DNA from: a virus
DNA length: 64,000 bases
Direction: 5' to 3' (one strand)
Virus record (IMG/VR): IMGVR_UViG_3300044675_005482
Span: 49,998-113,997 of that record
This document shows, piece after piece, positions 34,104 to 57,269 of this stretch. Position 1 is the first letter of the stretch, and each line of letters opens with the position of its first letter. The position numbers were made by a program, and so were the translations under genes. The notes beneath the pieces are model-generated. The model was not told where the DNA came from, made no database searches, and saw only the letters and a program-made list of their open reading frames with translations.

Positions 34104-34130
34104 GGACCTGAGCATGTCCTCAAACTGCTC
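34104..34130 (+). ncRNA. Small H-type pseudoknot motif, copy 1
   Basis: GGAC-CTGAGCAT-GTCC-TCAAACTGCTC. Confidence 0.6.
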
Positions 34131-34149
34131 TTTAAATTTAGGGAGACAC

Positions 34150-34557
34150 ATGTTTGAATACAGGGTTAAGCAGGTAACAAAGGTAGTGGACGGAGATACT
34201 ATTGATGTTGATATTGATCTTGGTTTTAGCATATCTTACTCTCAAAGATTAAGACTAGCTGGAATAGATACACCAGAGTCTAGAACATCAGACAGGTTTG
34301 AAAAGACACTTGGAGTTGAATCAAAGGATTATTTAAAACATAAGTTAAAAGATGCTAAGGATGTAGTTGTAAGAACAGAAAAGCCAGACAGCTCAGAAAA
34401 GTATGGCAGAATACTTGGTTGGGTTTATGTTGATGGAAACACAAAATCAGTTAATGAACAAATGATTGAAGATGGATATGCATGGGGATACATGGGAGAA
34501 ACTAAGGTCAAAGATTTTGCAGCCTTAGCTGAAAAGAGAAAAAAGAGCGGCAAGTAA
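34150..34557 (+). CDS. Thermonuclease (SNase-like)
   Basis: VVDGDTI, RLAGIDTPE, KYGRILG. Confidence 0.92.
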   Translation: MFEYRVKQVTKVVDGDTIDVDIDLGFSISYSQRLRLAGIDTPESRTSDRFEKTLGVESKDYLKHKLKDAKDVVVRTEKPDSSEKYGRILGWVYVDGNTKSVNEQMIEDGYAWGYMGETKVKDFAALAEKRKKSGK

Positions 34558-34745
34558 TGCCAGTATACGAATACAAATGTAGATTAGATGAAGCACATGC
34601 TTTGTTATCAATAACAAGATCCATATCAGATTCAGATCCAGGATACAGATGTGAAGAATGTAACTCAGAAATGATAAGACACTTTAGTCCATTTGGTATA
34701 CAGTTTAAGGGTAACGGCTTTTATAAAACAGATAATCCTAGTTAA
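34557..34745 (+). CDS. FmdB-family zinc-ribbon protein
   Basis: MPVYEYKC...CEEC...FKGNGFYKTD. Confidence 0.88.
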   Translation: MPVYEYKCRLDEAHALLSITRSISDSDPGYRCEECNSEMIRHFSPFGIQFKGNGFYKTDNPS

Positions 34746-34812
34746 TTTTAACTAACATTCTGCTATAATTACTAAGTAAGCAAAGATATTGCATTACTTA
34801 GGAGATACCTAG

Positions 34813-37326
34813 TTGACTAGAAAGTTACAGTATTTTTTAACCAGCCTTTTTATAATCGGCTGGCTTTTCCTTTTTGGGCCCAGTATAGCAAATGCTGATG
34901 AGCCAACAGTTCAAGTAACTCCAGCTAATCCTTCTTCAGATACTGCCACAGCAACCACTCCTATTACAGTTGAAACGGTTGCAGATAAGGTAGAAGCGGC
35001 AGCAGATACATTACAGGCAGCAGCAGAAACACAAGCAGCTGCTATAACTACTACAATTCAAGCTAATGTTCCTAACACAACAATAACACAAGCAGCTACA
35101 ATTGCTACCACACAAGAGCCAATTGCTACTGCAGTTGCAGAGGCTACAGTAAAGGTGCAAGAGGCCACAACAGCGATTCAGTCTGCTGAGACAGCGGTTT
35201 CTGTTGCTACAACGGCACAGTCAGCTGTTGAGTCACAAACGGTGGTAGTTGCAGAAGCAACAACAAATTTAAATAATGCTCAGACAGCATTAAATACAGT
35301 AACTCAGCAAGTCGAATCACAGACCGCAGTGGTTGCTGCAGATACTGCAAACGTAGCAGTGGCGCAGGCTGCCGTTAATGCACAGACCACCGTAGTAAAT
35401 ACCGAAACTTCAGAGCTAACTGCTCTTCAAAATACTCCTTCAGATTCTAAAACCTATACAACTACTGGATATGTAGCCCCAGTTGCTCCTGAAAATCCAA
35501 CCACAACCACTACAGTTTTGCCAGCAATGTATGATGCAGCAACTAAAATAAACACACCGTTTGATATCAAAATGGGTAACACTGTTTATGAAGGACAGGG
35601 CAATAATAGCCAGATATATGTAACTTCAAAAGCAACTATTACATTTGGCGTGGGAGATTTTAACTGGACCGACTTCCCAGCAGGTGCACACATTTCAGTA
35701 TTTGGTAGTGATTTTATGAGTGCAGGTCCTGGTGCTGGAATTACTGTAAAAACAACAGAGACAACTTTAGCTGTTGATTGGGATCTTCATAGATTTGGAG
35801 ACAATAATGGACCAATTACAAATGTTAATTGGACTATGACTGTTAACCCTACAACAGGTGAATGGACTGGTGTAGGTACCGTTGCTGGTAATACTACATC
35901 ATTATATGGCGGACCTCGTATTGGAATTCGTGAGGCTTCTGGCCAAGCTGTAAAGCCAATGACAAATGTAACTAATACAGAACTAACTGCTCAAATTGAA
36001 AGTCAAACAGCAGTGGTTGCTACTGAAACTGCAGAACTAACTACCTTAGTCCAAGAAAAGAATGAAGCTGTAGCGGTACTTGCAGCAGACACTGCAATTC
36101 TAAATACATTGCAAGCGCAAAAAACAACTGCTGAAGCAGTAGTTATAGATAAAACAGAAATTAAAACAGCAGAAGTTGCAACTTTAACTCAACTTACAGA
36201 AACTGCAACGGCCACAGTTCAGGCTGCAGATACACTTGCAAATACAGCAACTACAAAAGTAAATGAGGCAGTAACAGCAATGACAAATGCTGCACAAGTT
36301 ACTACAAATTATTACGCAGAACAGAGAGCTGCACAACAAGCAGCGTCTCAGGCAGCTGCAGAAGCAGCAGCACAACAAGCAGCACAAGAAGCTGCGGCAG
36401 CGGAAGCTGCAGCGGCCAAAGCAGAAGCAGAAGCTAAAGCAGCTGCAGAAGCTGCAGCAAAAGCCGAAGCCGAAGCAAAGGCAGCCGCTGAAGCAGCGGC
36501 CAAAGCAGAAGCAGATAGAGTTGCTGCTGAGGAAGCAGCAGCTAAAGCAGAAGCAGATCGTGTAGCAGCAGAAGAAGCTGCAGCAAAAGCTGAACAAGAA
36601 GCTAAAGAGCAAGCAGAGGCAAATGCTAAAGCAGAAGCAGAAAGATTAGAGGCAGAAGCAGAGGCTGCAAGACAAGCAGAAGAGCAAGCCAAAGCAGAAG
36701 CAGAAGCTAAAGCACAAGAAGAAGCAAATGCAAAAGCAGAAGCGGAAGCTAAGCAAGCAGAGGCAGATAAATTAAAGGCTGAGGCGGAAGCAAAAGAGGC
36801 AGAGAAGGAAGCCCTTGATAAAGCTATAGAAGATGCTAAACAAGGTAAAGAATTAACTGAAGAACAAAAAGACGCAGTAGTTGAAAGTCTTGTTGCAGAC
36901 CTAAAGCAAGGAGAAGCAGTAAGTTCTGCAGATATTAAAGCATCTGGAATTGAATATAAAGATCTTCCACCTGCAACCCCAGTAGATGTTAGAACAGATG
37001 AAAATGGAAATGCAGTTGTAATTACTGCAGCAGTTGCTGCACAAGTAGAATTATTACAAAATCCTTCAGAGCTTTTGTCAACAGCATTAGAGAATCCAGC
37101 TGCAGCAATTGCAGCATTGGGCGCAATCGGTGCTGACATGTCAGATGAAGAAAGAGAAGAAGCAACAGATATGGTTGTTGCTACAGTAGTTGCAGCAGGT
37201 GCTGCAATTAACGCAGCAGCCGTTGCCACAGGAGGAGCCACAGGAGGTGGCACAGGAGGCGGAGGAAGTTCTGGTGGGGGCTCAGGAGCCAATTCACCAG
37301 GTTCACGAGGAGGAAGAAGATGGTAA
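34813..37326 (+). CDS. Large exported Ala/Thr-rich protein with TolA-like EAAAKAEA repeats and C-terminal hydrophobic segment
   Basis: Signal peptide ending ANA-D, long coiled coil, GGAG RBS before TTG start. Confidence 0.8.
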   Translation: MTRKLQYFLTSLFIIGWLFLFGPSIANADEPTVQVTPANPSSDTATATTPITVETVADKVEAAADTLQAAAETQAAAITTTIQANVPNTTITQAATIATTQEPIATAVAEATVKVQEATTAIQSAETAVSVATTAQSAVESQTVVVAEATTNLNNAQTALNTVTQQVESQTAVVAADTANVAVAQAAVNAQTTVVNTETSELTALQNTPSDSKTYTTTGYVAPVAPENPTTTTTVLPAMYDAATKINTPFDIKMGNTVYEGQGNNSQIYVTSKATITFGVGDFNWTDFPAGAHISVFGSDFMSAGPGAGITVKTTETTLAVDWDLHRFGDNNGPITNVNWTMTVNPTTGEWTGVGTVAGNTTSLYGGPRIGIREASGQAVKPMTNVTNTELTAQIESQTAVVATETAELTTLVQEKNEAVAVLAADTAILNTLQAQKTTAEAVVIDKTEIKTAEVATLTQLTETATATVQAADTLANTATTKVNEAVTAMTNAAQVTTNYYAEQRAAQQAASQAAAEAAAQQAAQEAAAAEAAAAKAEAEAKAAAEAAAKAEAEAKAAAEAAAKAEADRVAAEEAAAKAEADRVAAEEAAAKAEQEAKEQAEANAKAEAERLEAEAEAARQAEEQAKAEAEAKAQEEANAKAEAEAKQAEADKLKAEAEAKEAEKEALDKAIEDAKQGKELTEEQKDAVVESLVADLKQGEAVSSADIKASGIEYKDLPPATPVDVRTDENGNAVVITAAVAAQVELLQNPSELLSTALENPAAAIAALGAIGADMSDEEREEATDMVVATVVAAGAAINAAAVATGGATGGGTGGGGSSGGGSGANSPGSRGGRRW

Positions 37327-37499
37327 GAATAATAAAGAATATCCTAAAGGATATGGTAGACCAAGCATGGACGCTTCTCGGTATGTTTATTGCTTGGGTA
37401 GTTCTGGACGGAAGTGCAAAGACTGTAGTTGGTTATGGAATCATGGCAACAACTGCTCTTTGGATAATTACAAGCCCGATCAGAAATAGAGAGGAATAA
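37320..37499 (+). CDS. Small two-TM membrane protein (59 aa, not in ORF track)
   Basis: QAWTLLGMFIAWVVLDGSAKTVVGYGIMATTALWII. Confidence 0.7.
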   Translation: MVRIIKNILKDMVDQAWTLLGMFIAWVVLDGSAKTVVGYGIMATTALWIITSPIRNREE

Positions 37500-37501
37500 A
37501 A

Positions 37502-37792
37502 ATGGCAAAAGCACATATTGAAGAGCCAGTACAGGTAGGTTCTGGAGCAATTGCAAGCATCAATAACATATTCATGAGAATTGTTGCTGTATTTGCAGCA
37601 TCAGGACTTTCAGTAATTGGAGCAGGAGCAGTAGTCGGAATTGAAACATACAAGGCTGTTATTCTTGCTGGAACATTAGGAGTAGCAACAGTAGTTGAGA
37701 AATTAGCTCGTGGTTTCCTAGATGATGGCAAGCTAACAATTGATGAAATTAATTCAGCGTTTTCAGCAGTCGATAAAAAAGCTGCGAAATAA
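37502..37792 (+). CDS. Membrane protein, holin-like
   Basis: Two hydrophobic helices, charged C-terminus. Confidence 0.6.
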   Translation: MAKAHIEEPVQVGSGAIASINNIFMRIVAVFAASGLSVIGAGAVVGIETYKAVILAGTLGVATVVEKLARGFLDDGKLTIDEINSAFSAVDKKAAK

Positions 37793-37807
37793 TGCTATAA
37801 TAGTATT

Positions 37808-37951
37808 ATGAAAACCTATTTAATTAAGTTATCTGTTGATATTGAAATAGAGGCCTTTAATGAGGACGATGCTAAAGAATATTTATCAGACATATTTAAT
37901 ATTGATGATGAGATTAAAAAGGTTGGCATAGTAAAAATTATTGAAAAATAA
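37808..37951 (+). CDS. Hypothetical protein (47 aa)
   Basis: Leaderless ORF MKTYLIKLSVDIEIEAF... Confidence 0.55.
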   Translation: MKTYLIKLSVDIEIEAFNEDDAKEYLSDIFNIDDEIKKVGIVKIIEK

Positions 37952-38019
37952 TCGTTGACAAACCTCATTAATACAATGTATAATAGTTATACCAGGCGGA
38001 CTGAGTGATAGGAAAATGA

Positions 38020-38253
38020 GTGCTTAATCTCACCGAAAAGGGTGTTGAGGTATTTATCAAAAAATACAAAAGCGACAAGCAAGAGTCTTTCTGGGATAAC
38101 TACGACCTAATTATTTGGAATAAAAATAATAGTGGTTTTACAAACATCAAAGGACTTTTCAGAAACAATTCATGGGGCCTAGCAGATAAAATATCTGTTA
38201 GTGATCAAGGAGTCTGGAAACTGTCAAAAAAGTATGTCAAATATTTTAAATGA
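38020..38253 (+). CDS. Hypothetical protein
   Basis: ORF downstream of TTGACA-17-TATAAT. Confidence 0.65.
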   Translation: MLNLTEKGVEVFIKKYKSDKQESFWDNYDLIIWNKNNSGFTNIKGLFRNNSWGLADKISVSDQGVWKLSKKYVKYFK

Positions 38254-38545
38254 ACTTGGTATAGATAGAGACGACTTTCAATGGTTCCATCTTGCGCTAT
38301 GTCGTGGGATGGACACCAATTTGTTCTATGACAAGTACGAAGCAGATGTAAATATAGCAAAAAATATAGACGAGGCCTGTCTTGGGTGCCCCGTTATTAA
38401 AACATGCTACGAGTTTGGTACTGAAAACAACGAGCACGGAATCTGGGGTGGAGTGTACTTAAACTCTGGATCAACAGATAAAGCCAGAAACTCTCATAAA
38501 ACAAAAGAGGTCTGGAAGAGACTAAAGGCAAAGCATGGAAAATAA
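38234..38545 (+). CDS. whiB: WhiB-family Fe-S transcription factor
   Basis: ALCRGMDTNLFY...CLGCPVIKTC...HGIWGG. Confidence 0.92.
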   Translation: MSNILNELGIDRDDFQWFHLALCRGMDTNLFYDKYEADVNIAKNIDEACLGCPVIKTCYEFGTENNEHGIWGGVYLNSGSTDKARNSHKTKEVWKRLKAKHGK

Positions 38546-38840
38546 ACACTTTAAGTATGGAATCAATCAATGGACTGGTGAGCCAAATAAGCCTGTTTTT
38601 TATACCCCAGAAATGTCTAAAGCTGTAAGATCAATTAAAAAACCAGTTCACAATTTACAAATGGACATAGCACAGTACCCAGATTTTCTTGCTATAAGAC
38701 TATATGAAGATAATTTTGTTCAATTTGCTGGAAATAAAAAAGAAATGGTAATTGATTATGTATCTAAGATTAAAAAGATTATAGAGTCATATGGGGTAAG
38801 ATGTGAATTGGAAGGTGTTCCTAGTGCAAGAATACTATGA
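38535..38840 (+). CDS. Hypothetical protein
   Basis: Coupled ORF. Confidence 0.7.
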   Translation: MENKHFKYGINQWTGEPNKPVFYTPEMSKAVRSIKKPVHNLQMDIAQYPDFLAIRLYEDNFVQFAGNKKEMVIDYVSKIKKIIESYGVRCELEGVPSARIL

Positions 38841-39020
38841 TACGGTTATTATAGTTTATTTACACAATTTAGGTGTTACTGGAACAATTGATAAAATGGG
38901 AGCGTATGCTTCAATTGTAAGATATAAAAAAGACGAAGTAGAGTACGAAGAACTGATTGAAAATAATGAATTCGCCATATTGGATGAATTAGTATTTGAA
39001 CATATAATAGAGGAACAATA

Positions 39021-39257
39021 ATGGAAAAGATCCTGTGCTATTCATGCAATAAGAGTAAGAATAAACTAAGCGTAAAGTTTTCTTCCCTTTTGCCAATTAG
39101 CCTACTGATGTGCGAAACCTGCATATCTTCTAAGTTTGAGCCACGCTGGGTAATTATCTTGTCTGGAAGACAAAATGGGGCTGAGTCCGTAAGAGACTTT
39201 ATCCTAAAAAGAAAGTACGTTGGTAGCGAAATTACAGCATCTGAGCTTATTCTTTAA
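39021..39257 (+). CDS. Hypothetical zinc-binding protein
   Basis: CYSC...CETC. Confidence 0.65.
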   Translation: MEKILCYSCNKSKNKLSVKFSSLLPISLLMCETCISSKFEPRWVIILSGRQNGAESVRDFILKRKYVGSEITASELIL

Positions 39258-39297
39258 GCATGTTGGACATTGAATTTATAAATAGTATACTAGTATT

Positions 39298-39855
39298 ATG
39301 ACCTGTATAGTTGCTATTGCCCAAAATGGAGTTGTCTATATGGCCTCCGACCATGCTGCTTCAGACGATAAAACTGGATGGATTCTGTCTAGAAAAGAAC
39401 CAAAGGTTTTTAAAGTTGGACAATATGGAGTTGCATTTACAGATTCATTTCGCATGGGACAAATTTTGCAATACTCATGGACTCCTCCAAAGTACACACC
39501 AACAAAAACAAATTCTGGTTTAGATAAATTTATGAGAACTAAGTTTGTTGATTCAGTTAAGCAAGCATTTAAAGACAACGGATACGGAAGCATCGGATCT
39601 TCCTCAGAAGAAGATACTGGTGGAATTTTTATAGTAGGGGTATGCGGTAGAATCTTTACTATAGATGAAGACTTTCATGTAGGAGAAAATGTTGTAAACT
39701 ATATGGCGGAAGGCAGTGGCGGAATGATAGCATTGGGAGCTTTATACGCTACAAAAAATCAAAAGAATCCACGTTTACGTTTAAAGGCTGCATTAGAAGC
39801 TGCAACAGAGTTTAATATGTCAGTAGCAGCACCCTACACTTATATTCAAGTTTAG
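39298..39855 (+). CDS. Ntn-hydrolase protease (HslV/proteasome beta-like)
   Basis: N-terminal M-TCIVA, ASD, KVF, AEGSGG..ALGAL. Confidence 0.82.
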   Translation: MTCIVAIAQNGVVYMASDHAASDDKTGWILSRKEPKVFKVGQYGVAFTDSFRMGQILQYSWTPPKYTPTKTNSGLDKFMRTKFVDSVKQAFKDNGYGSIGSSSEEDTGGIFIVGVCGRIFTIDEDFHVGENVVNYMAEGSGGMIALGALYATKNQKNPRLRLKAALEAATEFNMSVAAPYTYIQV

Positions 39856-39869
39856 TGTATAATTGAGGT

Positions 39870-40199
39870 ATGAAGATGTTAACAACCTTACTTGCAGCAG
39901 TAGTTGGATTTTTCGGATTCAAGGCGGCCAGAGAGTTCTTTGATAAGAATGTAATTTTAATTGCAGATAAAGACGATATTATTCAAGAAGGATATAACGA
40001 TCCTGATGATTTTTACAAAGATGCTATGGATTTAAGAGGGACCCCAACACACGAATGCGTATGTGGATCTAATATATGGAATGTTAGAGTTATATTCCAA
40101 GATTTTGAGGTTGCCCAATACTTTTTAGATATGGAATGTGCAGGCTGTGGTAGCATTGCAACAGCACCTACGTTATTAGACAGAGAACCTAAAGAATGA
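39870..40199 (+). CDS. Hypothetical membrane-anchored zinc-ribbon protein
   Basis: N-terminal TM; CVCG, CAGCG. Confidence 0.65.
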   Translation: MKMLTTLLAAVVGFFGFKAAREFFDKNVILIADKDDIIQEGYNDPDDFYKDAMDLRGTPTHECVCGSNIWNVRVIFQDFEVAQYFLDMECAGCGSIATAPTLLDREPKE

Positions 40200-40396
40200 G
40201 AAAGACTGAAAGAATAAGGGCTCTAGAGATAGAGCAATCCGCTTTAAAGGCACAATTAGACCTGCTTACAGAAACATTGTTAACTTTAATAGACATTCGT
40301 AGTCTAGAAAAGACTACTCTAGAGTCTGGCAAGTGGTATACAAAACCTAAAGAATAGGCTATTGACAGCCATTATTCTATTTAGTAGAATAAAGAA

Positions 40397-41338
40397 ATGA
40401 ATACAAAAACTATAGCGCTGATTGCAGCCTTACTAATTGCAGTACCTCAATCTGCTGAAGCTTCTAAGACTTCAGTTAAGAATACTACTATCACAACGCC
40501 TTCATTGGCAATTCTAGACACTGGACTAGACACCTCTTTGCCGTTCTTTGCTGGCAAAATTGTACACGAAGTTTGTTTTGTTGGCTGGAGCACATGTCCA
40601 AACGGTTCTGGTTTTCAAGAAGGTCCTGGGTCTGCTGTTGTAAACCCTAAGTTTATTAATACAAATGGATTTGATCATGGAACACAGATGGCCTATATTG
40701 CATTGGCTACTAATCCAAATATGAATATTGTGTTTGTTAGAATTGTCGGTAATACTTCAGACGGAAGACGACAGATTGTCCCAGATAGCACAATTGAAGG
40801 TGCATTAAAGTGGGTACTGGCAAATAAAGATAAGTATAATATTCAAGCAGTTGCAATGGCGCAAGGGTCTATGTCAAGAAACACTTCTGCAACAGATTAT
40901 TGCGTAAAGATTCCTACAGTAACTTCAGCAGTCGATGCCCTTGTTGCTGCTGGTGTACCTTCTTTCTTCCCTAATGGAAATGATAGAAATTATAATAAGA
41001 TTAATTGGCCAGCATGTATCCCATCAGCAGTTGCGGTTGGATCAACAGACCAAATGGGGTCCATCAACCTATATACAAATCACGATAAGTCTTTGACAGA
41101 CTTTTTCTCTCTAGGCAATGCTAAAGTAATGGTTCCTGGTGGATCAATTATTAATGGTGCTGGAACCTCTATCTCTGTTCAAACTGCAGCAGCAAATTGG
41201 ATTAAGCTAAAGTCTGCTAAGCCAAATCTCAGTTATCAAGAAACATATAATTTAATTCTTAAAACTGGAAAGGCAACCAAAAATTCAAGAATACCTACTG
41301 GTATTTTGTTTGATGTGAATGGGGCAATAAATGGATAA
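40397..41338 (+). CDS. Secreted subtilisin-like (S8) serine protease
   Basis: Signal peptide; ILDTG, HGTQM, GTSIS catalytic motifs. Confidence 0.9.
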   Translation: MNTKTIALIAALLIAVPQSAEASKTSVKNTTITTPSLAILDTGLDTSLPFFAGKIVHEVCFVGWSTCPNGSGFQEGPGSAVVNPKFINTNGFDHGTQMAYIALATNPNMNIVFVRIVGNTSDGRRQIVPDSTIEGALKWVLANKDKYNIQAVAMAQGSMSRNTSATDYCVKIPTVTSAVDALVAAGVPSFFPNGNDRNYNKINWPACIPSAVAVGSTDQMGSINLYTNHDKSLTDFFSLGNAKVMVPGGSIINGAGTSISVQTAAANWIKLKSAKPNLSYQETYNLILKTGKATKNSRIPTGILFDVNGAING

Positions 41339-41540
41339 ACAGCAAACTGTAATGGAAGGCATCATTGAAGATGTAGCAACAGACCTATATAATAAATGGT
41401 CAGCAGCACTTCCAGAAGCAGAAAGAAATGATAATGCATTTAGTGCTTTATCAACAAATGCTCACGAGACTACTTTATTTATTATTCAAAACTTTATGAA
41501 TAGATTTAATGAAGCAGCAGAGGAACTAAAAGATAAATGA
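41331..41540 (+). CDS. Hypothetical protein
   Basis: Coupled ORF. Confidence 0.65.
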   Translation: MDKQQTVMEGIIEDVATDLYNKWSAALPEAERNDNAFSALSTNAHETTLFIIQNFMNRFNEAAEELKDK

Positions 41541-41839
41541 AGATTACAGACGACACATTAGACGAAGTTTTAAAGTCTAACGATTTAGTCCTTGTGGATT
41601 TCTGGGCTGAATGGTGCGGACCGTGTTTAAAGATATCTCCAATTCTAGATGAAATATCTAAAGAGACTGGGCTACTCGTTGGTAAGTTAAATATTGATGA
41701 GAATCCTGTAAAAACATCTGAATATTCAGTTGTCTCTATACCAAATATGATATTATTTAAAGACGGTAAGCCAGTAAAAACCATAATTGGAGCAAAGCCA
41801 AAGCATGCTATGCTAAAGGAGCTTGAAGAATGGATTTAG
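41537..41839 (+). CDS. trxA: Thioredoxin
   Basis: DFWAEWCGPC. Confidence 0.95.
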   Translation: MKITDDTLDEVLKSNDLVLVDFWAEWCGPCLKISPILDEISKETGLLVGKLNIDENPVKTSEYSVVSIPNMILFKDGKPVKTIIGAKPKHAMLKELEEWI

Positions 41840-42024
41840 AAAACCTAGACTCAGATCATTTAGAGTTTGAGATATGGTTAAAAAATGGCTTTGATCGTGG
41901 ATGGGTATCAGATGTATTCTGTAATACTCATGACGGTCCACCTCTTTCAGAAGAAGAGGCGCAAGAATGGGATGAGGGCGGAGATCCGTGCTCTTTCCAA
42001 GTTAAAGTAAATATGCTAAACTAA
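41830..42024 (+). CDS. Hypothetical protein
   Basis: CNTHDG...GGDPC. Confidence 0.65.
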   Translation: MDLENLDSDHLEFEIWLKNGFDRGWVSDVFCNTHDGPPLSEEEAQEWDEGGDPCSFQVKVNMLN

Positions 42025-42073
42025 GTTTCTGTGCTCGCATAAGAGGCAGAATAAATAAGGAGAAATGAATTAA

Positions 42074-48529: not shown

Positions 48530-48531
48530 AA

Positions 48532-49016: not shown

Positions 49017-49247
49017 ATGGATAACAACGACAACATTGAATTAACAGATGAAGAGATCTCAAAGGCCTATACTTCAGATAATGAAGATGAGGACAAATGG
49101 GACAATCTGGAAAAGGCTTGCTGGTCTGGATATAAGCAAGTAGGAATGAAAGAAAAGGGCGGGAAGAAAGTACCGAACTGTGTTCCTATTAAGAAGTCTA
49201 TCTTTGGTACAGAAGGACCTCAATCAATCATACCTAGGAACAAGTAG
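49017..49247 (+). CDS. Hypothetical protein with CWxGY...VPNCVP motif
   Basis: Leaderless start; CWSGYKQVGMKEKGGKKVPNCVP. Confidence 0.7.
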   Translation: MDNNDNIELTDEEISKAYTSDNEDEDKWDNLEKACWSGYKQVGMKEKGGKKVPNCVPIKKSIFGTEGPQSIIPRNK

Positions 49248-49415
49248 CCATGCTAGAACCAATACTTGTATATATAGGGCTTGCTGTAGTAATTGCATAT
49301 CTTGCCATTAAAGAAGATGGCTTTAAATTCTTCACAAATGACAGAGATAAAGACGGCATTGTTCAAGAGGGTACTAAATGGGAGAGATCATTCTTCTATT
49401 GGAGTAAGAAGTAAT

Positions 49416-49586
49416 ATGGCAATATTAGACAATCTAGAGGCATATATGGAAATGGCGGAAAAGACAGAAAAGTGTCACTATTGCCAAGGTCTAGCTAAAT
49501 ATAATGATATAGCTGAAGTAGATAAGGCTAAATACGATATTGTAGGCGTATGTGAATGTCATTCATATAAGGGATTAGTGTCATAA
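49416..49586 (+). CDS. Hypothetical zinc-binding protein
   Basis: CHYC...CECH. Confidence 0.55.
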   Translation: MAILDNLEAYMEMAEKTEKCHYCQGLAKYNDIAEVDKAKYDIVGVCECHSYKGLVS

Positions 49587-49632
49587 TATCGTCAGAAGTG
49601 AAGTCGAAAAGTAGAGACCCATTGGTCACTAC

Positions 49633-50004
49633 GTGGCCACTATGAAGAATCTAAATCAGGTATTTAAGCCTTATAAGGCTCAATTTGATAGATGTCCTAG
49701 ACATATTAAGATCCTAGCCATATTGTGCGTTATGTACCTATCTGTCCCAATTGACCCATTTGATATATTATTCCCATGGATGGCATTTACAGATGATCTA
49801 TTCATAGCAGGTATCCTTTTGAAGATTCTGCACAAACACGGCGGGCTACCAGAAGAAGACAAGACTTCCCCTATAGACCTATTAAGAGATATATTCAAGA
49901 GAGTAGATAATAAACAAGATAGTACATCCCTTGCAGTACATTTGTTTAAAGATAATGTATGTAGCCATTGTGGATTAATTGATCACAACAAGACCAAGAA
50001 TTAG
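49633..50004 (+). CDS. DUF1232/YkvA-like membrane protein
   Basis: YLSVPIDPFDILFPWMAFTDDL. Confidence 0.7.
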   Translation: MATMKNLNQVFKPYKAQFDRCPRHIKILAILCVMYLSVPIDPFDILFPWMAFTDDLFIAGILLKILHKHGGLPEEDKTSPIDLLRDIFKRVDNKQDSTSLAVHLFKDNVCSHCGLIDHNKTKN

Positions 50005-50485
50005 CTTTAAAATTAAAGCAATATGGTCTTAACTCCTCATACTACCCGCCCTTTTACATAGCTTATATAGCCCTTAGAAGGCTTATTTGAGCCATATTTG
50101 TATCATCCTACCAACTTAAATTACTATTAATTCCCTTGTGAATACTACCGATATATATGTATTTAGATATACATGTAATTGAGCGATTCCCCATCTTAAA
50201 CCATAATGCTCCATTTTGCTCCACATGTAGCCCATGTGCCAGCATATTCCAGGGATTTTGTCAATAGCCTCGTAAATGGCATATTTGGCCCACTTTGTCA
50301 ATAGTTTTTATGATCTAATTTGGCCATAATTTATGCCAGATTTGTCATACATTTTGTACATATTTGTCGACATTTATAATGTATAATTAATTATTTAGAC
50401 ATATTATGTACACATTTTCTAGGATTTCAGGGAGATTTTATAAGCTCTCGTAAACGGGAAATTTGGCCCTCAATTTTGCACACAA

Positions 50486-50518
50486 AAAATCCACAGGCTG
50501 TGGATAACCTGTGGATAA
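50486..50518. promoter_or_regulatory. DnaA-box cluster 1
   Basis: TGTGGATAA at 50499 and 50510; degenerate AAATCCACA at 50486. Confidence 0.65.
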
Positions 50519-50573
50519 TTTGGGCTAGATATGTTTATCTATCTTGCCAGACATTCTTCTCTCATATATGTCT

Positions 50574-50939
50574 TTATTGGAATGGATCTTTATCCTCTAT
50601 ATAACCAAAGCCTTGTCGCTTTGGTTCTGTTTTCTTTACCACCGCTTTTGGTTCCTGCGGAAGTTTTAGATTTTTCCAGTCATACTTCTTAGTTAGTTTA
50701 TCTACTACAATGTCTAACTGTTTTGCTAGAAATAGACCTTCGCTTGTTGTTCCGTTGTTCCAGTCCGCCTCGTGCTTTCGTGCTTCCTTCTCAATAATCC
50801 ACACAACCAACTCCATAACTCTGTCAATGGTGTAATGAGGTTGGTCTGCTAAGTATCGGGCTACTGAAGCAGGATTGAAGTAATGGTCTTCGATTGCATT
50901 TGCTATCGCAACTGCAACTTTGCTTTCTTTGGTATTCAT
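50574..50939 (-). CDS. Hypothetical early protein
   Basis: ORF with promoter and RBS. Confidence 0.7.
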   Translation of the reverse strand: MNTKESKVAVAIANAIEDHYFNPASVARYLADQPHYTIDRVMELVVWIIEKEARKHEADWNNGTTSEGLFLAKQLDIVVDKLTKKYDWKNLKLPQEPKAVVKKTEPKRQGFGYIEDKDPFQ

Positions 50940-51010
50940 AGTCCGCCTTTCTTGATTAGGATTATAACATAAGGGACTGACATTGTGCCAGTCCCCTAAT
51001 GTATATTAGA

Positions 51011-51160
51011 TTACTTAGCCTTGTTGACTGGAGTCTCTGCGGTAAACTTCATGCCCTTTGATTCCGCCTCCTGGATAGCAACCTTAGCTGCTCCTGAGAA
51101 ACGACCACGAGCTCCGACTGTGATTCCTTGTGACTTTAGATATTCACGCTTTGTTGTCAT
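51011..51160 (-). CDS. Lsr2-like DNA-binding mini-protein (49 aa, not in ORF track)
   Basis: KREYLKSQGITVGARGRFS with RGR hook; GAAAGGGGA RBS. Confidence 0.65.
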   Translation of the reverse strand: MTTKREYLKSQGITVGARGRFSGAAKVAIQEAESKGMKFTAETPVNKAK

Positions 51161-51702
51161 TTGTATCCCCTTTCAAGAGATGTTTTATTTATTATATCAA
51201 CTATTTACGGATTTGTAAATAGCTTTCCGCCTATATTTAATTGTGATCGTAAGAGCCAAATTTGGCCCCTACAAATTTACCTGTTCTACTCGATCTTTAA
51301 TTAATTTACTAATGATGTTGTGGGCCTCGATATTCTCAGTCTCAGATCCACCCCACAAAAGCTGCTGTGCTTTATTTAATTGATCATTGATGTACACATC
51401 ACTCATCTTCATCTTCGTCCTCCTCCTCTTCAAACATCAAGTCTGTCATGATGTCGTTGTTTAACAGCCAGTCACGTATATCTTCGTAGTGTTGCTCTGC
51501 CCCGTACTCCAGAGAGAACCCGTAGCCGTTCTGTACAGCCTCTCCGAGTTTGTCCCACACCTCTTGCTCTGATACCTCAAAGCGAAACTCCTTGTCGTCC
51601 ATTAGGTTTTTAATTGTGGACCATGTCCACAGCCATACCATGGAAAGACCAAGGTCGGTGGTGTCAAGAATCTTTAAACATTCATTTAGTTTATCTTTGT
51701 CA

Positions 51703-51975
51703 TCAGGCTTCATCTCGTTCTCCAATCGCAAATGCCAACTGATATGTAAGTTGATATAGTTCTACTAATGTATCAAGGGCACCCTCACATCTTGTGCGCT
51801 CCATTGAGTCCATTGCTTCTTCTGATTCATCCTCCTGCTCCTGTGCACGGGCTAGGTCCCGTTCAGCAATGAGCATTAGATTCTTTAGTTCTCCATGGAT
51901 GATGTCAAGGCCTGACACTCCAGCATTAACCATGCGTTGCATGTGGGGCGGGAGCCCAATATCTTCTGAGTTCAT
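51703..51975 (-). CDS. Hypothetical early protein
   Basis: ORF with AACGAAAGG RBS. Confidence 0.7.
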   Translation of the reverse strand: MNSEDIGLPPHMQRMVNAGVSGLDIIHGELKNLMLIAERDLARAQEQEDESEEAMDSMERTRCEGALDTLVELYQLTYQLAFAIGERDEA

Positions 51976-52574
51976 TATTCATACCTTTCGTTAGAAGAGT
52001 TCATTATATCAGTAGCCACTGACAATAAATGCCTGGTTGTCTCAATCTCTGCTTGTTTAACTTTATAGAAATGATGACCATTTACATAGTCAATCTTTTC
52101 TAGGTCTTGTTCAAGACTAATTAAATGAAGTTTCATATATTCCATAAACTTAGAAGACTTAGACATCTACTACCTCATATCTCTGAGTCAATCTGTCGAA
52201 ATACCTGGCAGCTTGGCAGGTACAACTGCATACACCAGGTATGTCTGTCGCTTGCCAGTAATGTTTATGCATGATCGAAATACCCCTCTGCCCACAGCCC
52301 TTGAAGGAAATCGTGGGCGGATACAAGATAGTTATGAATAGCAGGATTCTCATCAGCATCTATTAACAAGTCTGCTTGATAAACCCCATATGTCATATCT
52401 GCTAAATCTCTCTGTGTATAACCTAACATTATGCAACCTCGTATTCATGTAAGTAGTTTAATACATTGTGAATTATGCAATCACAATCTCCGCCCATATT
52501 ATCCATAAAATCTAAGTGGGAATAATTATCCTCATAGATAGTATTGATTACTTTATCAAACATTTCTATTGTTG

Positions 52575-53348
52575 TCATACATCCGCCTTTTCTCTAGATT
52601 CCAATAATACCATGTGGGTCTGACATTTTGCCATAGCCTCTTCATCTTGCCAAGAGCCTTGGTTACATTCTGAGCAGAATTCACCACAGTCATCTTCACA
52701 GTAATCTAATGTATCAAAAGATTGGCAAGCATAACAGCGATTCTCATATGAAAGAATTTCCTTTACCTCACCACGGACAATCTCATACTCTCCGCCCCAG
52801 CCTGTTTCTTCCTCATACTCTAATGTAAGCAGGCAGTTCGGAACAAGATTACTTAGTTTAGTTAAGATAGTTACAGCAGGTGACCATGCAGTCTCATAAC
52901 GATAGATAACCCAGTTGTCATCACCTTCTGATTTATATTCAACTAATTCTGTATTTGAATACTCCTCATCATCACGAACGGCTACATCCCACTTAGTTCC
53001 CCAGTTGGTGTTATTCCAAGAATACCAATCCTTTTGAGTCTTAGCATGTTCAATAGATTTAGCAAACCAATTAGGGTCGTCCATTGAATAATCACCACGA
53101 GAAGGCTGGCATGCATATTCCTCATCAGTAATGCCGTCATCCTTATATGAATGAATGTTGTGAAAAGCGAATACAGGATTATTATATTCAACTAATTTAA
53201 TTTTGGTGGGGAATCCAGAAGAACTAATATCACCCATACCATAAGTCTCTTGTGCTAATGTAAATGGCTTATTCAATCTATCTTTAATCATATCTACCTC
53301 AGACTTAGGTCCTTGGATAGTTAATGTGTTATAACACCAATTTGGCAT
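52575..53348 (-). CDS. YubB/DUF1281 ferredoxin-like domain protein
   Basis: MPNWCYN, WYSWNNTNWGTKWD, ETAWSP. Confidence 0.8.
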   Translation of the reverse strand: MPNWCYNTLTIQGPKSEVDMIKDRLNKPFTLAQETYGMGDISSSGFPTKIKLVEYNNPVFAFHNIHSYKDDGITDEEYACQPSRGDYSMDDPNWFAKSIEHAKTQKDWYSWNNTNWGTKWDVAVRDDEEYSNTELVEYKSEGDDNWVIYRYETAWSPAVTILTKLSNLVPNCLLTLEYEEETGWGGEYEIVRGEVKEILSYENRCYACQSFDTLDYCEDDCGEFCSECNQGSWQDEEAMAKCQTHMVLLESREKADV

Positions 53349-53526
53349 TTTATATCCTTTCGTTGATATGGCTTAATTATACAATGGACCACTGACAATT
53401 GGAATACTTTATAAGTGTGTTTCACACCACATTTTTCAAGCTATGTGGTCAAGATCACCAAATTTCCAGGAAATATATATTGACTTCGTAAACAAACTAT
53501 TATACCCTCAGCTTTTGGGGGCCAAA

Positions 53527-53670
53527 CAAAAATCCCCGCTTGCACGGGGATTAATGAAATGTACGGCTGCTAGGATCTACCAACGAAAGTAAAAAGTCCT
53601 GCTTTACTTAGCGACTTGACGAATGCCTTATCTAGCCGCACCGAACATGTATAAGAAGGCACCAGGCCTA
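53527..53670 (-). ncRNA. Candidate structured small RNA with its own promoter and terminator
   Basis: TGGTATAAT ending at 53676; stems GTGCCTT/AAGGCAT and GTGCGGCT/AGCCGTAC; terminator AATCCCCG..CGGGGATTTTT. Confidence 0.45.
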
Positions 53671-53676
53671 CTTAAA

Positions 53677-54042
53677 TTATACCATAACTAGTCGACTGTA
53701 TTTATTTACAAATTCATCGATAGTTAAACTGAAGACAACTGTCTCAAGGTCCTCTTCCATCAATGTAAATGTTTTGGCAGCCCAGTCAATTACTGGTACC
53801 TTGTGCTCATTGTCCGCCAATTGATTTACGCTAATGCCCCAGCCTGTTTCTGATTCCCATTCTTCGCCAACCATGCGACTAATAGCAATACGTGTAGCAT
53901 ATGACTCATCATTCCAACGAGGACGTGCTGCCTCTACAGCATTGGCCAAGTTCTCTAACATGTTATAGCCTGCCCAGTGCCCGTACAGGAATACTGTATC
54001 TCCCTTACGGTCCTTAAATCCAAAGTTTGCTCTGTCTCCCAT
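53677..54042 (-). CDS. Conserved phage hypothetical protein
   Basis: MGDRA...LYGHWAG. Confidence 0.75.
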   Translation of the reverse strand: MGDRANFGFKDRKGDTVFLYGHWAGYNMLENLANAVEAARPRWNDESYATRIAISRMVGEEWESETGWGISVNQLADNEHKVPVIDWAAKTFTLMEEDLETVVFSLTIDEFVNKYSRLVMV

Positions 54043-54399
54043 TTTATTCCGCCGTTTCTAATGTAGGTACTTCTTCTTCGATTTTGTCTAATTCTATCAT
54101 CTCGTATGAGACCTTGGCAAGTCCATCCTCGAACTTGTTTTTGTGGTGACCGCAGAAGAACAGCTCGCCTTCTACTAGCTTAATTAACCATTTAGCTTGA
54201 GCTGTACTACATGCATCACATGCAATCCATCTAGTTAGATCTTCAGAGGTCATAGTCAACGGTTCCAAATTCTATGGTGTCAGCAATGTCATCATAAACC
54301 TGTCCGTCATCAGATGACTCCGCCCATAGTCTAATGTTGGCAATGATAACTTCACGGGCAAATTTTACCCCGTCTTCAAAACCGTCTTGGTAATCCATT

Positions 54400-54618
54400 T
54401 TATCTCCCTGTATATCCTGTTGGCTCGTAGTCTGATGTATAACTCTCTACTAGGTTATACTTATCACGAATGCGTGATACTTTCTCAATGCTACCAGTTC
54501 CCACATTGAATGTCAATGGTCCAATCGCTTGTGGGTCCAGGCCAATCATCTCCGCATCCCAGGTAGCCCTCGCAAAGGCTACCTGGTTTGGAGCGGTTAA
54601 TTCAAAATACATTAGCAC
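54400..54618 (-). CDS. Hypothetical early protein
   Basis: Coupled ORF. Confidence 0.6.
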   Translation of the reverse strand: MLMYFELTAPNQVAFARATWDAEMIGLDPQAIGPLTFNVGTGSIEKVSRIRDKYNLVESYTSDYEPTGYTGR

Positions 54619-55262
54619 TCCCTAACGTGACATACTTCTTGTTCTGTCACTTCGATATTGCCATTGTGTGAATCGGCATAGATAGCATCTGCAATCTCAT
54701 CTTCGATGTCATAGTCCTCAAGCAAATCAAGTTCCATGGTTCCGCTAACCTCGATAGTTGCAGTCCATTCAACGCTACGTGTTAGAGAGATATCTAAAGC
54801 CTCAGCAATTGCACGTAATGTGTCTTGGTCTTGTGAATCAGCATATGCCTCAGCAATAATATCTTTAACTGTTTTAACTTTGTCTTCAAAGATGCCAACA
54901 CGCTTTTGTGCTTGACGTGCATTGTGTAGGTCCCACTCAATTGATGTGACCTTGTCAGTTGCATACTCTGCATCTGAGTATCCACGAATAACTTTATAGG
55001 TTACTAATAGATTTGGGTTATATGTATCAGGAACAGTTACTGCAGTTGTTGTTTCTTCCATGGTTTCCTCTTTCGTTTGTGTAGGTTGTATTGTAGCATG
55101 CTCCACTGACACCAATGTAGTATCTCGACCACACGGGCATGTGAGCTTAGTCACACCAGATGGGAATCCAAATCCATCCGATGATGTTAGTTCAATTAGA
55201 GAATCACATTCATCTGGGTCACATACAAATGTGTACTTACTTGATATGAGTTCGTTGGTCAT
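54612..55262 (-). CDS. Early protein, likely two in-frame isoforms (starts 55262 and 55061)
   Basis: Near-leaderless start after promoter 55270; internal promoter 55090 plus RBS. Confidence 0.65.
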   Translation of the reverse strand: MTNELISSKYTFVCDPDECDSLIELTSSDGFGFPSGVTKLTCPCGRDTTLVSVEHATIQPTQTKEETMEETTTAVTVPDTYNPNLLVTYKVIRGYSDAEYATDKVTSIEWDLHNARQAQKRVGIFEDKVKTVKDIIAEAYADSQDQDTLRAIAEALDISLTRSVEWTATIEVSGTMELDLLEDYDIEDEIADAIYADSHNGNIEVTEQEVCHVREC

Positions 55263-55364
55263 GACGAGAATTATACACCTGGCCACTGACATTTACAAGC
55301 TTTTTCAGGGATTTTATTTGTGATTCGTAACACACAAAATGTGCCTTCACATCTGGGGGCTTTG

Positions 55365-55438
55365 CGATCCATAACGGACTTGAACCGTCGACCTCTACCG
55401 TGACAGGGTAGCGCTCTAACCAACTGAGCTAATGGACC
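55365..55438 (-). tRNA. tRNA-Asp(GTC)
   Basis: GGTCCAT/ATGGATC acceptor, CTACC-CTGTCAC-GGTAG, TTCAAGT T-loop. Confidence 0.93.
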
Positions 55439-55445
55439 TAATGGT

Positions 55446-55473
55446 GAGCAGTTTTAAATCTTGCTCAGGATTT
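55446..55473 (-). ncRNA. Small pseudoknot motif, copy 2
   Basis: AAATC-CTGAGCAA-GATTT-AAAACTGCTC. Confidence 0.6.
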
Positions 55474-55480
55474 TTTTTAT

Positions 55481-56485
55481 TTAGAAATTCATAACCAATT
55501 TCTTGATTTTGTTTTTCTCAGCAGTTAGAACGGGGTCAAATCCAGATGCACCCGCCATAAGAGTTTCACCATTGCCACGACCAGAACGATAGTAATCAAG
55601 GCGCTCAGTAAGTGCATTAAACGCACCCCATTTTGTTCCCTTGATATTAGCGTTAGTTGGTGAGTTATGATACAAATCATCAAGCAGGACAACTTTGTTT
55701 TCCCACTTCTTCAATGCACCCTTAGTGTCTTTATCAGGCTTTGGATAAATTGTCTGAATCAACTTTGAGAATTCAGCATCGGTGATTGCTTGAGTGTAAA
55801 GCGCCTTTGCTTCAACTTCAAACTCATCAAAATAACCAAGAGCAAGACCAAGAGTCTCACGAGCAACTTGAATGCGACCTTCAACAGATTGCGTGTGGCG
55901 AATCTTGAAAGATTGCTTTGCATTACGCATTGCAAGATTCAAAGTATTTTGGCAAACAACACGAACAGGAGTAACCGCTGCTTGAACAGCAACAGAACCA
56001 TCGTGTGATGTCCATACGATTAGATATAACTTTGTCTCATCATTGGCGCCTTGTGGGTCAAGAACCATTGTGCGAGGAATATCTACAGTGCCGAATACAA
56101 CTTTGCCCTTCTTAAGAGAACCAGCAGATTCCCAACGGCAATCAGCATTCGCATCGTGAATTGCATCTGCAAACTGAAATAATTCTTCATTCTGCACAGG
56201 CTTGTAACGCTTTCCAACAGTTGCAAGAACATCAGTTCCGCCATTGAATGGATTTGTGCGAACAACTAGAGATGAATCTGAAACATCATTCCAAGATTCG
56301 TCAATGTGATTTGTGATAGGTGATAAGCGAACATTCCAATTTGCTAACTTTGCTTCTTCAAGCATTGTTGCAGTTGTAACTTCCTCATCTTTTGTGAAGA
56401 TGCGATTTGCTAGATTATGCCAAGCAGGAGCACCACGGAGAGCGAAAGCAACTTCGCCATTTTCGACTTCGAGATTGTGAGCCAT
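55481..56485 (-). CDS. DUF932 family (phage/plasmid-like) protein
   Basis: MAHNLE, PAWHNL, YKPVQN, ESAGSL, SHDGS, TPVRVVCQNTL, WGAFNALTE. Confidence 0.88.
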   Translation of the reverse strand: MAHNLEVENGEVAFALRGAPAWHNLANRIFTKDEEVTTATMLEEAKLANWNVRLSPITNHIDESWNDVSDSSLVVRTNPFNGGTDVLATVGKRYKPVQNEELFQFADAIHDANADCRWESAGSLKKGKVVFGTVDIPRTMVLDPQGANDETKLYLIVWTSHDGSVAVQAAVTPVRVVCQNTLNLAMRNAKQSFKIRHTQSVEGRIQVARETLGLALGYFDEFEVEAKALYTQAITDAEFSKLIQTIYPKPDKDTKGALKKWENKVVLLDDLYHNSPTNANIKGTKWGAFNALTERLDYYRSGRGNGETLMAGASGFDPVLTAEKNKIKKLVMNF

Positions 56486-56574
56486 TTTTTACCTTTCGTT
56501 TAGTTGATTTGGCAATTATAACAGGTGGCACTGACATTGTCTAGATTAGTTAGTCATTTGTCCGAATTGATCCG

Positions 56575-56590
56575 TGTGAGTAATCTCACA
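56575..56590. promoter_or_regulatory. CRP/GlxR-type palindrome (one of a family)
   Basis: TGTGA-GTAATC-TCACA; further perfect copies at 58047, 58640, 60050, 61099. Confidence 0.7.
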
Positions 56591-56603
56591 AATTTTCAGG
56601 GGC

Positions 56604-56633
56604 TGTGGATAACCGTCTTAAACCTGTGGATAA
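56604..56633. promoter_or_regulatory. DnaA-box cluster 2
   Basis: TGTGGATAA at 56604 and 56625. Confidence 0.65.
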
Positions 56634-56701
56634 GTCCGCACATATGCGGGCGTCTCAGATAGTGGGAAGATGAGGCGGGATTTTAGATCCCGCCCCAAGC
56701 T

Positions 56702-56962
56702 TTAAAGTATTCCGATTTCCTGAGCAGTTAGTGGCTTATGTGTGTTCATTTTATTTACAATACTTTCATCAAGAAACATTGCAGTTGTTTTCTTTTTCTT
56801 TACGCTATCAAACACATAAGCATTTACTCTGCCGCTAAACTTACGCAGGTTGCTAAATACTAATTCCGTTAGGTATTCTTTATCTACACCTTGCTCAGAA
56901 TAAATTGTTACATCGTTCATCTTGTTTGCGTCATAGATTTCAATTCTAAAACGATTTTTCAT
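56702..56962 (-). CDS. Hypothetical early protein
   Basis: ORF with RBS and upstream TATAAT. Confidence 0.7.
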   Translation of the reverse strand: MKNRFRIEIYDANKMNDVTIYSEQGVDKEYLTELVFSNLRKFSGRVNAYVFDSVKKKKTTAMFLDESIVNKMNTHKPLTAQEIGIL

Positions 56963-57031
56963 TTTGTTCCTTTGTTAGTAGGGATAAGAATTATAACATT
57001 GGGGGCTAGAGTTTGTCTAGCCCCCTAAAAG

Positions 57032-57214
57032 TTATGCGCCGATTTTTACCATAGCCCAGCGCAGACCATTTTCTGTATTCAATCCTAGTTTAGTTAGATT
57101 AGGACGGATAGAAACGATTTCTGCGATAGTGCCAGTAATTCCTGATTTACCAGTTGTAAAGACATCGCCCTTACGATAGAAGCGACCCTTAGTAGTATCT
57201 AGAATTGGTGACAT
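57032..57214 (-). CDS. Small beta-barrel-like protein, paralog of 57807-57980
   Basis: YRKGDVFTTGKSGITGTIAEI...TENGLRW. Confidence 0.7.
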   Translation of the reverse strand: MSPILDTTKGRFYRKGDVFTTGKSGITGTIAEIVSIRPNLTKLGLNTENGLRWAMVKIGA

Positions 57215-57241
57215 TGTATTACCTTTCGTTAGTGGGTTGGT

Positions 57242-57269
57242 GAGCAGTTTTACAACTTGCTCAGGTTGT
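57242..57269 (-). ncRNA. Small pseudoknot motif, copy 3
   Basis: ACAAC-CTGAGCAA-GTTGT-AAAACTGCTC. Confidence 0.6.

Follow-up and report, generated by a model that had tools for sequence, protein, structure and literature searches.

A small RNA element in a freshwater phage genome

The window analysed here, 64,000 nucleotides (nt) in length, forms the right-hand part of one virus record of 113,997 bp (IMGVR_UViG_3300044675_005482) rated complete by CheckV, a phage genome that has been found repeatedly in freshwater-lake metagenomes. An initial annotation of this DNA had drawn attention to a small RNA pseudoknot placed three times between genes, and it is this element, called the knot below, that we have followed. 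Our analyses indicate that it is a real and very widespread RNA pseudoknot family that is apparently uncatalogued. The sequence of each of the three sites was confirmed at its coordinates and strand; scores are those of a covariance model.

34104..34130, plus strand: pseudoknot copy 1 (41.9 bits)
55446..55473, minus strand: pseudoknot copy 2, AAAUC-CUGAGCAA-GAUUU-AAAAC-UGCUC (49.9 bits)
57242..57269, minus strand: pseudoknot copy 3, ACAAC-CUGAGCAA-GUUGU-AAAAC-UGCUC (45.4 bits)

Copy 1 folds through a first stem of 34104-34107 with 34116-34119, a loop 1 made of CU (34108-34109), a second stem of 34110-34114 with 34126-34130, and the linker UCAAAC at 34120-34125. As had been proposed, stem 1 is distinct in each copy and yet paired in all of them (GGAC/GUCC, AAAUC/GAUUU and ACAAC/GUUGU). 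The pattern CTGAGCA-N4-12-AAACTGCTC matched three times in the window and not once in 100 shuffles, while pattern searches allowing mismatches found no fourth copy in the whole 113,997-bp genome. When the covariance model was run on the complete genome, the three copies scored 42-50 bits and the next best site at most 17 bits. Each copy stands single, with spacings of 1.8 and 21 kb, and all three share their strand with the flanking open reading frames (ORFs). The features surrounding them are as follows.

33626..34045, plus strand: Hsp20 gene, upstream of copy 1
34046..34100, plus strand: leader before copy 1, with TATAAT (34048-34053), a hairpin (34061-34075) and a second GC hairpin
34150..34557, plus strand: SNase-type endonuclease gene, downstream of copy 1, with a phrog_452 match
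55364..55438, minus strand: tRNA-Asp(GTC), directly downstream of copy 2
55481..56485, minus strand: DUF932 / phrog_1221 gene, whose stop precedes copy 2
57032..57214, minus strand: 60-aa ORF downstream of copy 3, with the conserved leader ACUAACGAAAGG
57288..57310, minus strand: plain hairpin (ACACGC...GCGUGU) between the stop of the 138-aa ORF and copy 3
57319..57735, minus strand: 138-aa ORF upstream of copy 3, without a family match

The placements described in the initial annotation were borne out. Copy 1 lies upstream of the SNase gene, its end being 19 nt from the ATG (phrog_452, E 4e-48); copy 2 is separated by 7 nt from the DUF932 stop codon on one side and by 7 nt from tRNA-Asp on the other; copy 3 is found between the 138-aa and 60-aa ORFs, 27 nt ahead of an ATG that has an AAAGG ribosome-binding site. 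The Hsp20 gene (33626-34045, plus strand) and a Nol-like carbamoyltransferase gene (22689-24197, plus strand) are phage auxiliary genes of the aquatic-phage type.

Compensatory changes in both helices

The motif is a 28-nt H-type pseudoknot with a 4-bp stem 1 closed by C:G, the loop CUGAGCAW, the linker NNAAAC and the tail UGCUC, in which stem 1 is followed by a loop 1 of 1-2 nt, a stem 2 of 5-6 bp, one junction base and the A-rich NNAAAC loop 3; this layout is that of compact triplex pseudoknots. A scan of IMG/VR with the invariant parts only returned at least 146 matches on at least 120 contigs, with two to four copies on many of them, and the 7-nt gap of the window copies was present in 103 among the matches listed. 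The bases flanking the scan pattern, which had been left out of the query, pair in almost all of these matches. Across 122 distinct copies, changes on both sides were seen in all four core pairs of stem 1 and in a weaker fifth pair, the closing pair being C:G in 115 of them. The proportion of paired cells in these copies was 91%, and the covariation score of 0.449 compared with 0.132 in shuffles (reached in 0 of 500) and fell to 0.10 or less when the partners were slid.

Since GAGCA and UGCUC are invariant in the window, the helix between loop and tail was assessed in an unbiased manner with a skeleton search that specified only a stem 1 of at least four pairs, CU-N5 and, further on, AAAC-N5. 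All five loop-tail pairs were formed in 115 of its hits, and the six in which four pairs formed were unrelated junk. Paired variants of stem 2 comprised GGGUA/UACCC, GGACA/UGUCC, GGCCA/UGGCC, GGGCA/UGCCC, AAGCA/UGCUU and GAGUA/UACUC, together with AGGCA/UGCCU in close relatives. Single changes among the skeleton hits produced G.U in 12 cases and A.C in none, which places the fold on the sense RNA strand. Nested folding indicated, moreover, that U1 is able to pair with the A that usually comes after UGCUC, which extends stem 2 to six pairs (U1:A23). The two helices covary in more than 170 copies, taken from phage contigs of IMG/VR and bacterial genomes of many phyla, and the pairing of GAGCA with UGCUC put forward in the initial annotation is confirmed in this way by covariation in related sequences. 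Judged from sequence, the description of the motif as a functional, covarying H-type RNA pseudoknot holds.

Some copies depart from the standard form. In a subgroup of viral contigs (L002, L003, L045, L059, L067 and L101) the loop is 10 nt long (CUGAGCAGUC) and the stem has 6 bp, AUAGAC/GUCUAU, and in the same contigs an extended −10-like sequence, TGCTATAAT, is found about 12 nt past the knot. Decayed or half-deleted knots were seen in L338, L350 and L368, the tail being mutated in L350 (AAAAGGCUC).

Distribution across phages and bacterial phyla

Bacterial assemblies, taken as one genome per species (596 Gb) and searched with a stricter 18-base pattern, contained at least 119 loci. About 60% of the loci listed are of canonical length with stem 1 paired. 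The other 40% or so, off-length and with stem 1 unpaired, were discounted as the chance hits within coding sequence that a search of 596 Gb is expected to give. Convincing copies occur in Saccharibacteria and other members of the candidate phyla radiation, Firmicutes, Actinomycetota, Chloroflexota, Cyanobacteria, Bacteroidota, Desulfobacterota, Verrucomicrobiota, several classes of Pseudomonadota and others, many of them on contigs of metagenome-assembled genomes whose bin assignment is uncertain. Among cultured phages the knot is carried by Mycobacterium phage Labelle, Cyanophage S-RIM4 and Paracoccus phage ParKuw1, where it is intergenic in each case and starts 6-9 nt past the annotated coding sequence in Labelle and S-RIM4 and about 45 nt past it in ParKuw1. 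The presence of the knot in cultured phages of Mycobacterium, Synechococcus and Paracoccus, as well as in genomes of many phyla, points to host independence. The motif is very common, with hundreds of hits in IMG/VR and bacterial assemblies together, and the cultured carriers permit direct testing.

A match to a described RNA family, which the initial annotation had named as the outcome that would remove novelty, did not appear, as no Rfam 15 family matches the motif. Scans of the window and of 15 multi-copy loci at Rfam gathering thresholds yielded tRNAs and transfer-messenger RNAs (tmRNAs) only, and permissive scans (E<=10) of two copies gave only noise. A search of the accessible literature for the loop sequence returned nothing relevant. 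The tmRNA genes found on knot-bearing contigs at gathering scores (L054:11778-12019 and L114:11486-11558) are one permuted and one standard.

One of the functions suggested at first, the mimicry of a type III antitoxin pseudoknot, is not supported. The copies are single and dispersed, the tandem array of ToxI-like RNAs being absent, no ToxN-like gene lies nearby, none of 20 flanking-ORF queries matched a toxin family in PHROGs or Pfam, there was no Rfam hit, and the motif is near-unchanged across very many phyla.

Position relative to stop codons and tRNAs

Gene context, obtained from crude ORF calls, followed clear positional rules. Co-directional genes flank 112 of the 159 intergenic copies on both sides. 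Measured from the stop codon, the first loop base is almost never closer than 9 nt, a sharp lower limit, and 18, 8, 5, 12 and 9 copies lie at 9, 10, 11, 12 and 13 nt, respectively; 85 of 154 copies are no more than 25 nt away from the stop of an ORF with at least 70 codons. A floor of 9 nt leaves a spacer of 4-5 nt before stem 1 and thus sets the first paired base at about +11/+12 when the stop codon occupies the ribosomal A site. This is the edge at which the ribosomal helicase starts unwinding. The knot would then lie as near to the stop codon as it can while still being folded during termination. The initial annotation had stressed the placement of the copies upstream of genes, which holds in the window, whereas across phages the preceding stop codon is the tighter link. 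No partner gene is shared, the upstream genes being mostly small unknowns, with DUF932 in 15 of 81. Recoding by frameshifting or readthrough was considered and rejected, because all three frames close shortly after the stop codon that precedes the knot, the median distance to the next stop being 7, 7 and 3 codons in the 0, −1 and +1 frames.

The downstream side is asymmetric with respect to tRNAs, which come after the knot in 17 copies and before it in one. In L104 and L086, the knot ends a unit between convergent genes. Straight after the knot, 17% of viral copies carry ACC(A), copies 2 and 3 of the window among them (55442-55445 and 57238-57241, minus strand), as do 5% of genome copies (3/61 for ACC); common descent may be a partial cause of the viral excess. 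These features could be read as a recognition or processing signal for a conserved factor, either an RNase P substrate that mimics the tRNA acceptor arm, a protein-binding site or a tiny self-cleaving ribozyme. Such a signal would agree with a cross-phylum sequence conservation so extreme that it exceeds the needs of pairing, with the frequent adjacency to tRNAs and with the ACC(A) of the window's phage group. Pseudoknotted tRNA-like acceptor arms, such as that of turnip yellow mosaic virus (TYMV), have the same topology as the knot. Nevertheless, few copies of the genome set have ACC, the U1:A23 pair explains the A behind UGCUC, no protein family is common to the neighbourhoods, and no conserved flanking elements could form a catalytic core. 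We regard recognition of this kind as improbable, and, since ACC(A) is confined to the window's phage group and its A is explained by the extended stem 2, we give a low rating to its tRNA-like or RNase P version in particular.

Exchange with gene-end hairpins in related phages

The slot of copy 2 could be followed through 80 related contigs whose DUF932 protein is 90-95% identical to that of the window. Between the DUF932 gene and the next feature, usually a tRNA, 70 of the 80 carry the knot and the remaining 10 a canonical intrinsic terminator, CGGGGGAGA...UCUCCCCCG followed by UUUU. Likewise, Mycobacterium phage Patience has a long plain hairpin before tRNA-Gln in the slot where Labelle, downstream of gp85, has its knot. 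The occurrence of a terminator or a plain hairpin in the same slot of relatives indicates that the knot is interchangeable with gene-end hairpins.

Another reading is that the 28 bp act mainly as a short homology for cassette shuffling between phages, with little RNA function, in the manner of the PeSL cassettes (PMC2839356). Several observations are in line with such a recombination linker: the homology between Labelle and Patience stops at the stop codon, where the Labelle knot starts; the upstream gene stop of L338 (upstream of 701) is fused to ACUGCUC, so that one end of a deletion falls within the knot; and the sequence 3' of the knot varies among close relatives. However, compensatory changes in two helices and the occurrence of G.U but not A.C reflect selection on an RNA fold and not on DNA identity, the variable stem splits the homology into pieces of 8-9 bp, and the knot shows no clear excess of mosaic junctions over other gene borders. 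We consider this explanation highly improbable.

An orthologous knot with compensatory stem changes precedes 36 of 79 SNase orthologs (L332-L409). The block that corresponds to 34046-34100 (plus strand) of the window is laid out in these 36 as TATAAT, two or three hairpins, the knot in last position, and a Shine-Dalgarno sequence (SD) 9-12 nt further on. This block may be a structured leader or attenuator of the nuclease gene. In relatives, the copy-3-type knot comes straight after the stop codon, unlike copy 3 of the window. A UUCG-tetraloop hairpin (UCCCUUCGGGGA or ACACCUUCGGGUGU) directly follows this type of knot in about 60 of 80 relatives (L248-L327, about 950-1050); copy 3 of the window lacks it downstream and has a hairpin upstream instead.

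Promoters, transcripts and the possibility of attenuation

The minus-strand early region of the window is organised in cassettes that consist of a GC-rich stem-loop overlapping a TAGACA −35 box, an extended −10 box (TGTTATAAT) and a conserved leader, and that closely resemble the PeSL cassettes of T4-like phages, whose stem-loops have been shown by experiment to be terminators (PMC2839356). The DUF932 gene has its own promoter of this type (TAGACA-17-TGTTATAAT, 56543-56515). PeSL-like cassettes lie at 57025-56964 and 56543-56486 on the minus strand, each with a stem-loop GGGGGCUAGA...UCUAGCCCCC, the TAGACA −35, TGTTATAAT and an SD leader, and two 11/12 matches to sigma-70 stand ahead of early genes. 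The conserved leader ACUAACNAAAGG is placed ahead of several early start codons (7 matches against 1.5 expected), with minus-strand sites at 57222-57233, 57743-57754, 59512-59523, 61024-61035 and 51984-51995, and it is located 3' of the knot in about 60 related contigs. A hairpin promoter of the N4 virion RNA polymerase type was rejected as an identity for the knot, as the preference for G.U over A.C puts the fold on the sense strand, copies occur after stops and between convergent genes, and separate sigma-70-type promoters are present.

Neither the stretch from copy 2 to tRNA-Asp nor that from copy 3 to the 60-aa ORF contains a promoter, so that RNA polymerase has to pass both copies; the knot therefore acts inside a transcript, and in the window it is not a full terminator. 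The RNA data consist of Logan contigs of four metatranscriptomes, which cover the region and in which uncovered parts do not count as evidence. One RNA-library contig extends over 57056-57284 and spans copy 3 and the downstream ORF, and the summed contig depth, a weak measure, was about 10-fold higher over the genes just upstream of copies 2 and 3 than over those just downstream in three runs.

Canonical terminators near the knot showed no association with it (8-9 of 180 copies on either side). A run of at least four U begins within 10 nt of the 3' end of the knot in 22% of the viral and 30% of the genome copies, whereas other offsets give 0-5%. The knot could replace a terminator hairpin as an attenuator or terminator, stopping a part of the polymerases and setting cistron ratios in leaders and between convergent genes. 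Besides the U-runs, the intrinsic terminators that fill the same slot in 10 of 80 relatives argue for attenuation, as do the knots placed in the nuclease-gene leader and between convergent genes and the proven PeSL terminator stem-loops, which occupy the same kind of slot (PMC2839356); the drop in depth past the knot, given its weakness, is compatible with it. However, 70-78% of copies, including all three of the window, have no U-run, and most polymerases must pass copies 2 and 3, since the tRNA-Asp and the ORF behind them have no promoter of their own. A plain hairpin would suffice for attenuation, which leaves the special fold and its sequence conservation unexplained. As a general function, attenuation seems to us unlikely.

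A putative roadblock at cistron boundaries

The fold and the positional grammar of the knot are well established, and from them we infer its function. The reading that we prefer, at a little less than an even chance, is that the knot, as a compact roadblock or 3' cap, marks out and protects the ends of cistrons and at times works as an attenuator. Phages would place the knot at the cistron boundaries of their polycistronic RNAs, in the slot that otherwise holds terminator or stabiliser hairpins, as a host-independent mechanical roadblock and end-cap. In the course of events that we infer at every step, a cut by RNase P at a downstream tRNA, another cut or termination would create a new 3' end; 3'->5' exonucleases would trim this end up to the knot and halt there, and the upstream cistron would keep its stop codon intact and end in a minimal 3' untranslated region. 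Where a U-run follows the knot, transcription could be attenuated too. Equally, the knot might hinder machines that arrive from the 5' side, such as ribosomes past the stop, scanning RNase E or RNase J.

A roadblock or 3' cap would account for the stop-codon rule, the convergent-gene cases, the exchange with hairpins and the spread across hosts. The tRNA asymmetry also fits a cap, because the RNase P cut at a tRNA makes a 3' end that needs protection. The functional RNA module proposed in the initial annotation is in part supported: it can be described as a covarying pseudoknot absent from Rfam, for which an exonuclease block or processing boundary, two of the roles originally suggested, would fit the context best, and the antitoxin mimic finds no support.

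Several points weigh against this interpretation. For copies 1 and 3 of the window, a plain hairpin is already present after the stop codon and ahead of the knot, so that the knot is not the sole candidate cap there, and copy 1 and its 36 orthologous copies stand in an apparent 5' leader, a position that is a better fit to a 5'-side or attenuator role than to a 3' cap. The RNA support consists of contigs, in which RNA ends are not visible and whose depth is a poor measure, unable to rank genes. The very high sequence conservation could be a sign of recognition by a conserved factor. We know of no knot of this size that stops PNPase, RNase II or RNase R. Among eukaryotic systems, Xrn1 is not stopped by canonical frameshift knots, and coremin, a small exonuclease-blocking knot of plant viruses, needs a second hairpin for its resistance (PMC10321173).

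If the roadblock or cap is nonetheless what the knot provides, it would account for the way in which phages divide up long early transcripts with their many small genes and tRNAs. Phages would then possess a transferable RNA element of 28 nt for setting transcript ends or insulating cistrons in nearly any bacterium, and synthetic biology would gain a very small insulator or stabiliser.

Comparison with known systems

Intercistronic stabilisers of the REP (repetitive extragenic palindromic) type are gene-end stem-loops that lie in the same slot as the phage knot. Terminator and stabiliser stem-loops in general, including those of the PeSL cassettes of T4-like phages, share with it the position after the stop codon and the occurrence in early regions rich in small ORFs (PMC2839356). 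The knot differs from them in being a pseudoknot of near-fixed sequence across phyla and not a lineage-specific GC-rich hairpin.

The preQ1-I riboswitch aptamer (RF00522) is, like the knot, a small H-type pseudoknot with an A-rich 3' tail. In contrast, the phage knot has no conserved ligand-pairing C in loop 2 and is not tied to queuosine genes or to any one gene class. A preQ1-I riboswitch was accordingly rejected: no RF00522 hit was obtained at E<=10, the upstream genes are diverse, and tRNAs and the SNase-type nuclease gene lie downstream.

The −1 frameshifting knots of luteoviruses (beet western yellows virus, BWYV, type; 28 nt) have the same size and layout, with an A-rich loop 3 that would be expected in the minor groove of stem 1. 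The phage knot, however, has no slippery site, stands after a stop codon and is often followed by a tRNA; it is not a member of the luteoviral frameshift knots.

Together with the luteoviral knots, the nearest known fold is coremin, an exonuclease-resistant RNA (xrRNA-C) known from plant and other RNA viruses together with its Watson-Crick variant, xrRNA-WCC (PMC6546385, PMC10520033, PMC10321173). Knots of this type stall Xrn1 as well as scanning and elongating ribosomes, causing −1 frameshifting in the latter (PMC10321173, PMC10520033). Both elements have a 4-bp first hairpin closed by C:G, a size of about 20-30 nt and a spacer with AAAC before the pairing nucleotides. In the coremin loop a pyrimidine comes first and G-A next, and in the WCC variant this loop is paired with the tail; the phage loop begins C..GA and is likewise paired with its tail. 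Set against the Xrn1-resistant coremin heptaloop CGAGUAA, the phage loop, CUGAGUAA, resembles it plus one U. Nevertheless, the phage loop CUGAGCAW has 8 nt, the second being U and the third G, and does not conform to the coremin consensus YGAD / YGNNAD, in which G is second. Stem 2 of the phage knot, with 5-6 Watson-Crick pairs, is also unlike that of coremin, and the second hairpin (hp2) that coremin needs for Xrn1 resistance is absent from the three window copies and occurs in 24 of 177 phage copies, against 24-38 at control offsets. In addition, the phage hosts are bacteria, which lack Xrn1, and the knot is found just after stop codons in DNA phages.

These likenesses could suggest a coremin-like roadblock that works from the 5' side only, shielding a downstream SD and ORF or a tRNA precursor from RNase J or RNase E, or stopping the run-out of ribosomes. 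The features common to the coremin motif GUCCGAAGACGUUAAACUAC and the phage knot, the distance of 9-12 nt between knot and SD in the SNase leader, and the UUCG hairpin after copy-3-type knots in relatives would all agree with such a role. However, the second hairpin is not enriched, convergent-gene copies have nothing downstream to protect, a tRNA needs no 5' shield, and contig depth, as a weak indication, was higher upstream and not downstream. The motif was also present in contigs binned to beta- and gamma-proteobacteria, which to our knowledge lack RNase J. A purely 5'-sided roadblock is thus decidedly improbable as the whole explanation, and it is the leader position of copy 1, together with the coremin likeness, that keeps a 5'-side component possible alongside the roadblock or 3' cap that we prefer.

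By analogy, the phage knot may work in a coremin-like way, but it is not a member of coremin. It is possible, though rather doubtful, that it represents the first counterpart in prokaryotic viruses of the exonuclease- and ribosome-stalling xrRNAs, namely a 28-nt host-independent roadblock that punctuates polycistronic RNA across nearly all phyla and is able to replace a terminator hairpin. Such a counterpart would connect the RNA biology of phages with the xrRNAs and frameshifter knots that are found in viruses of eukaryotes.

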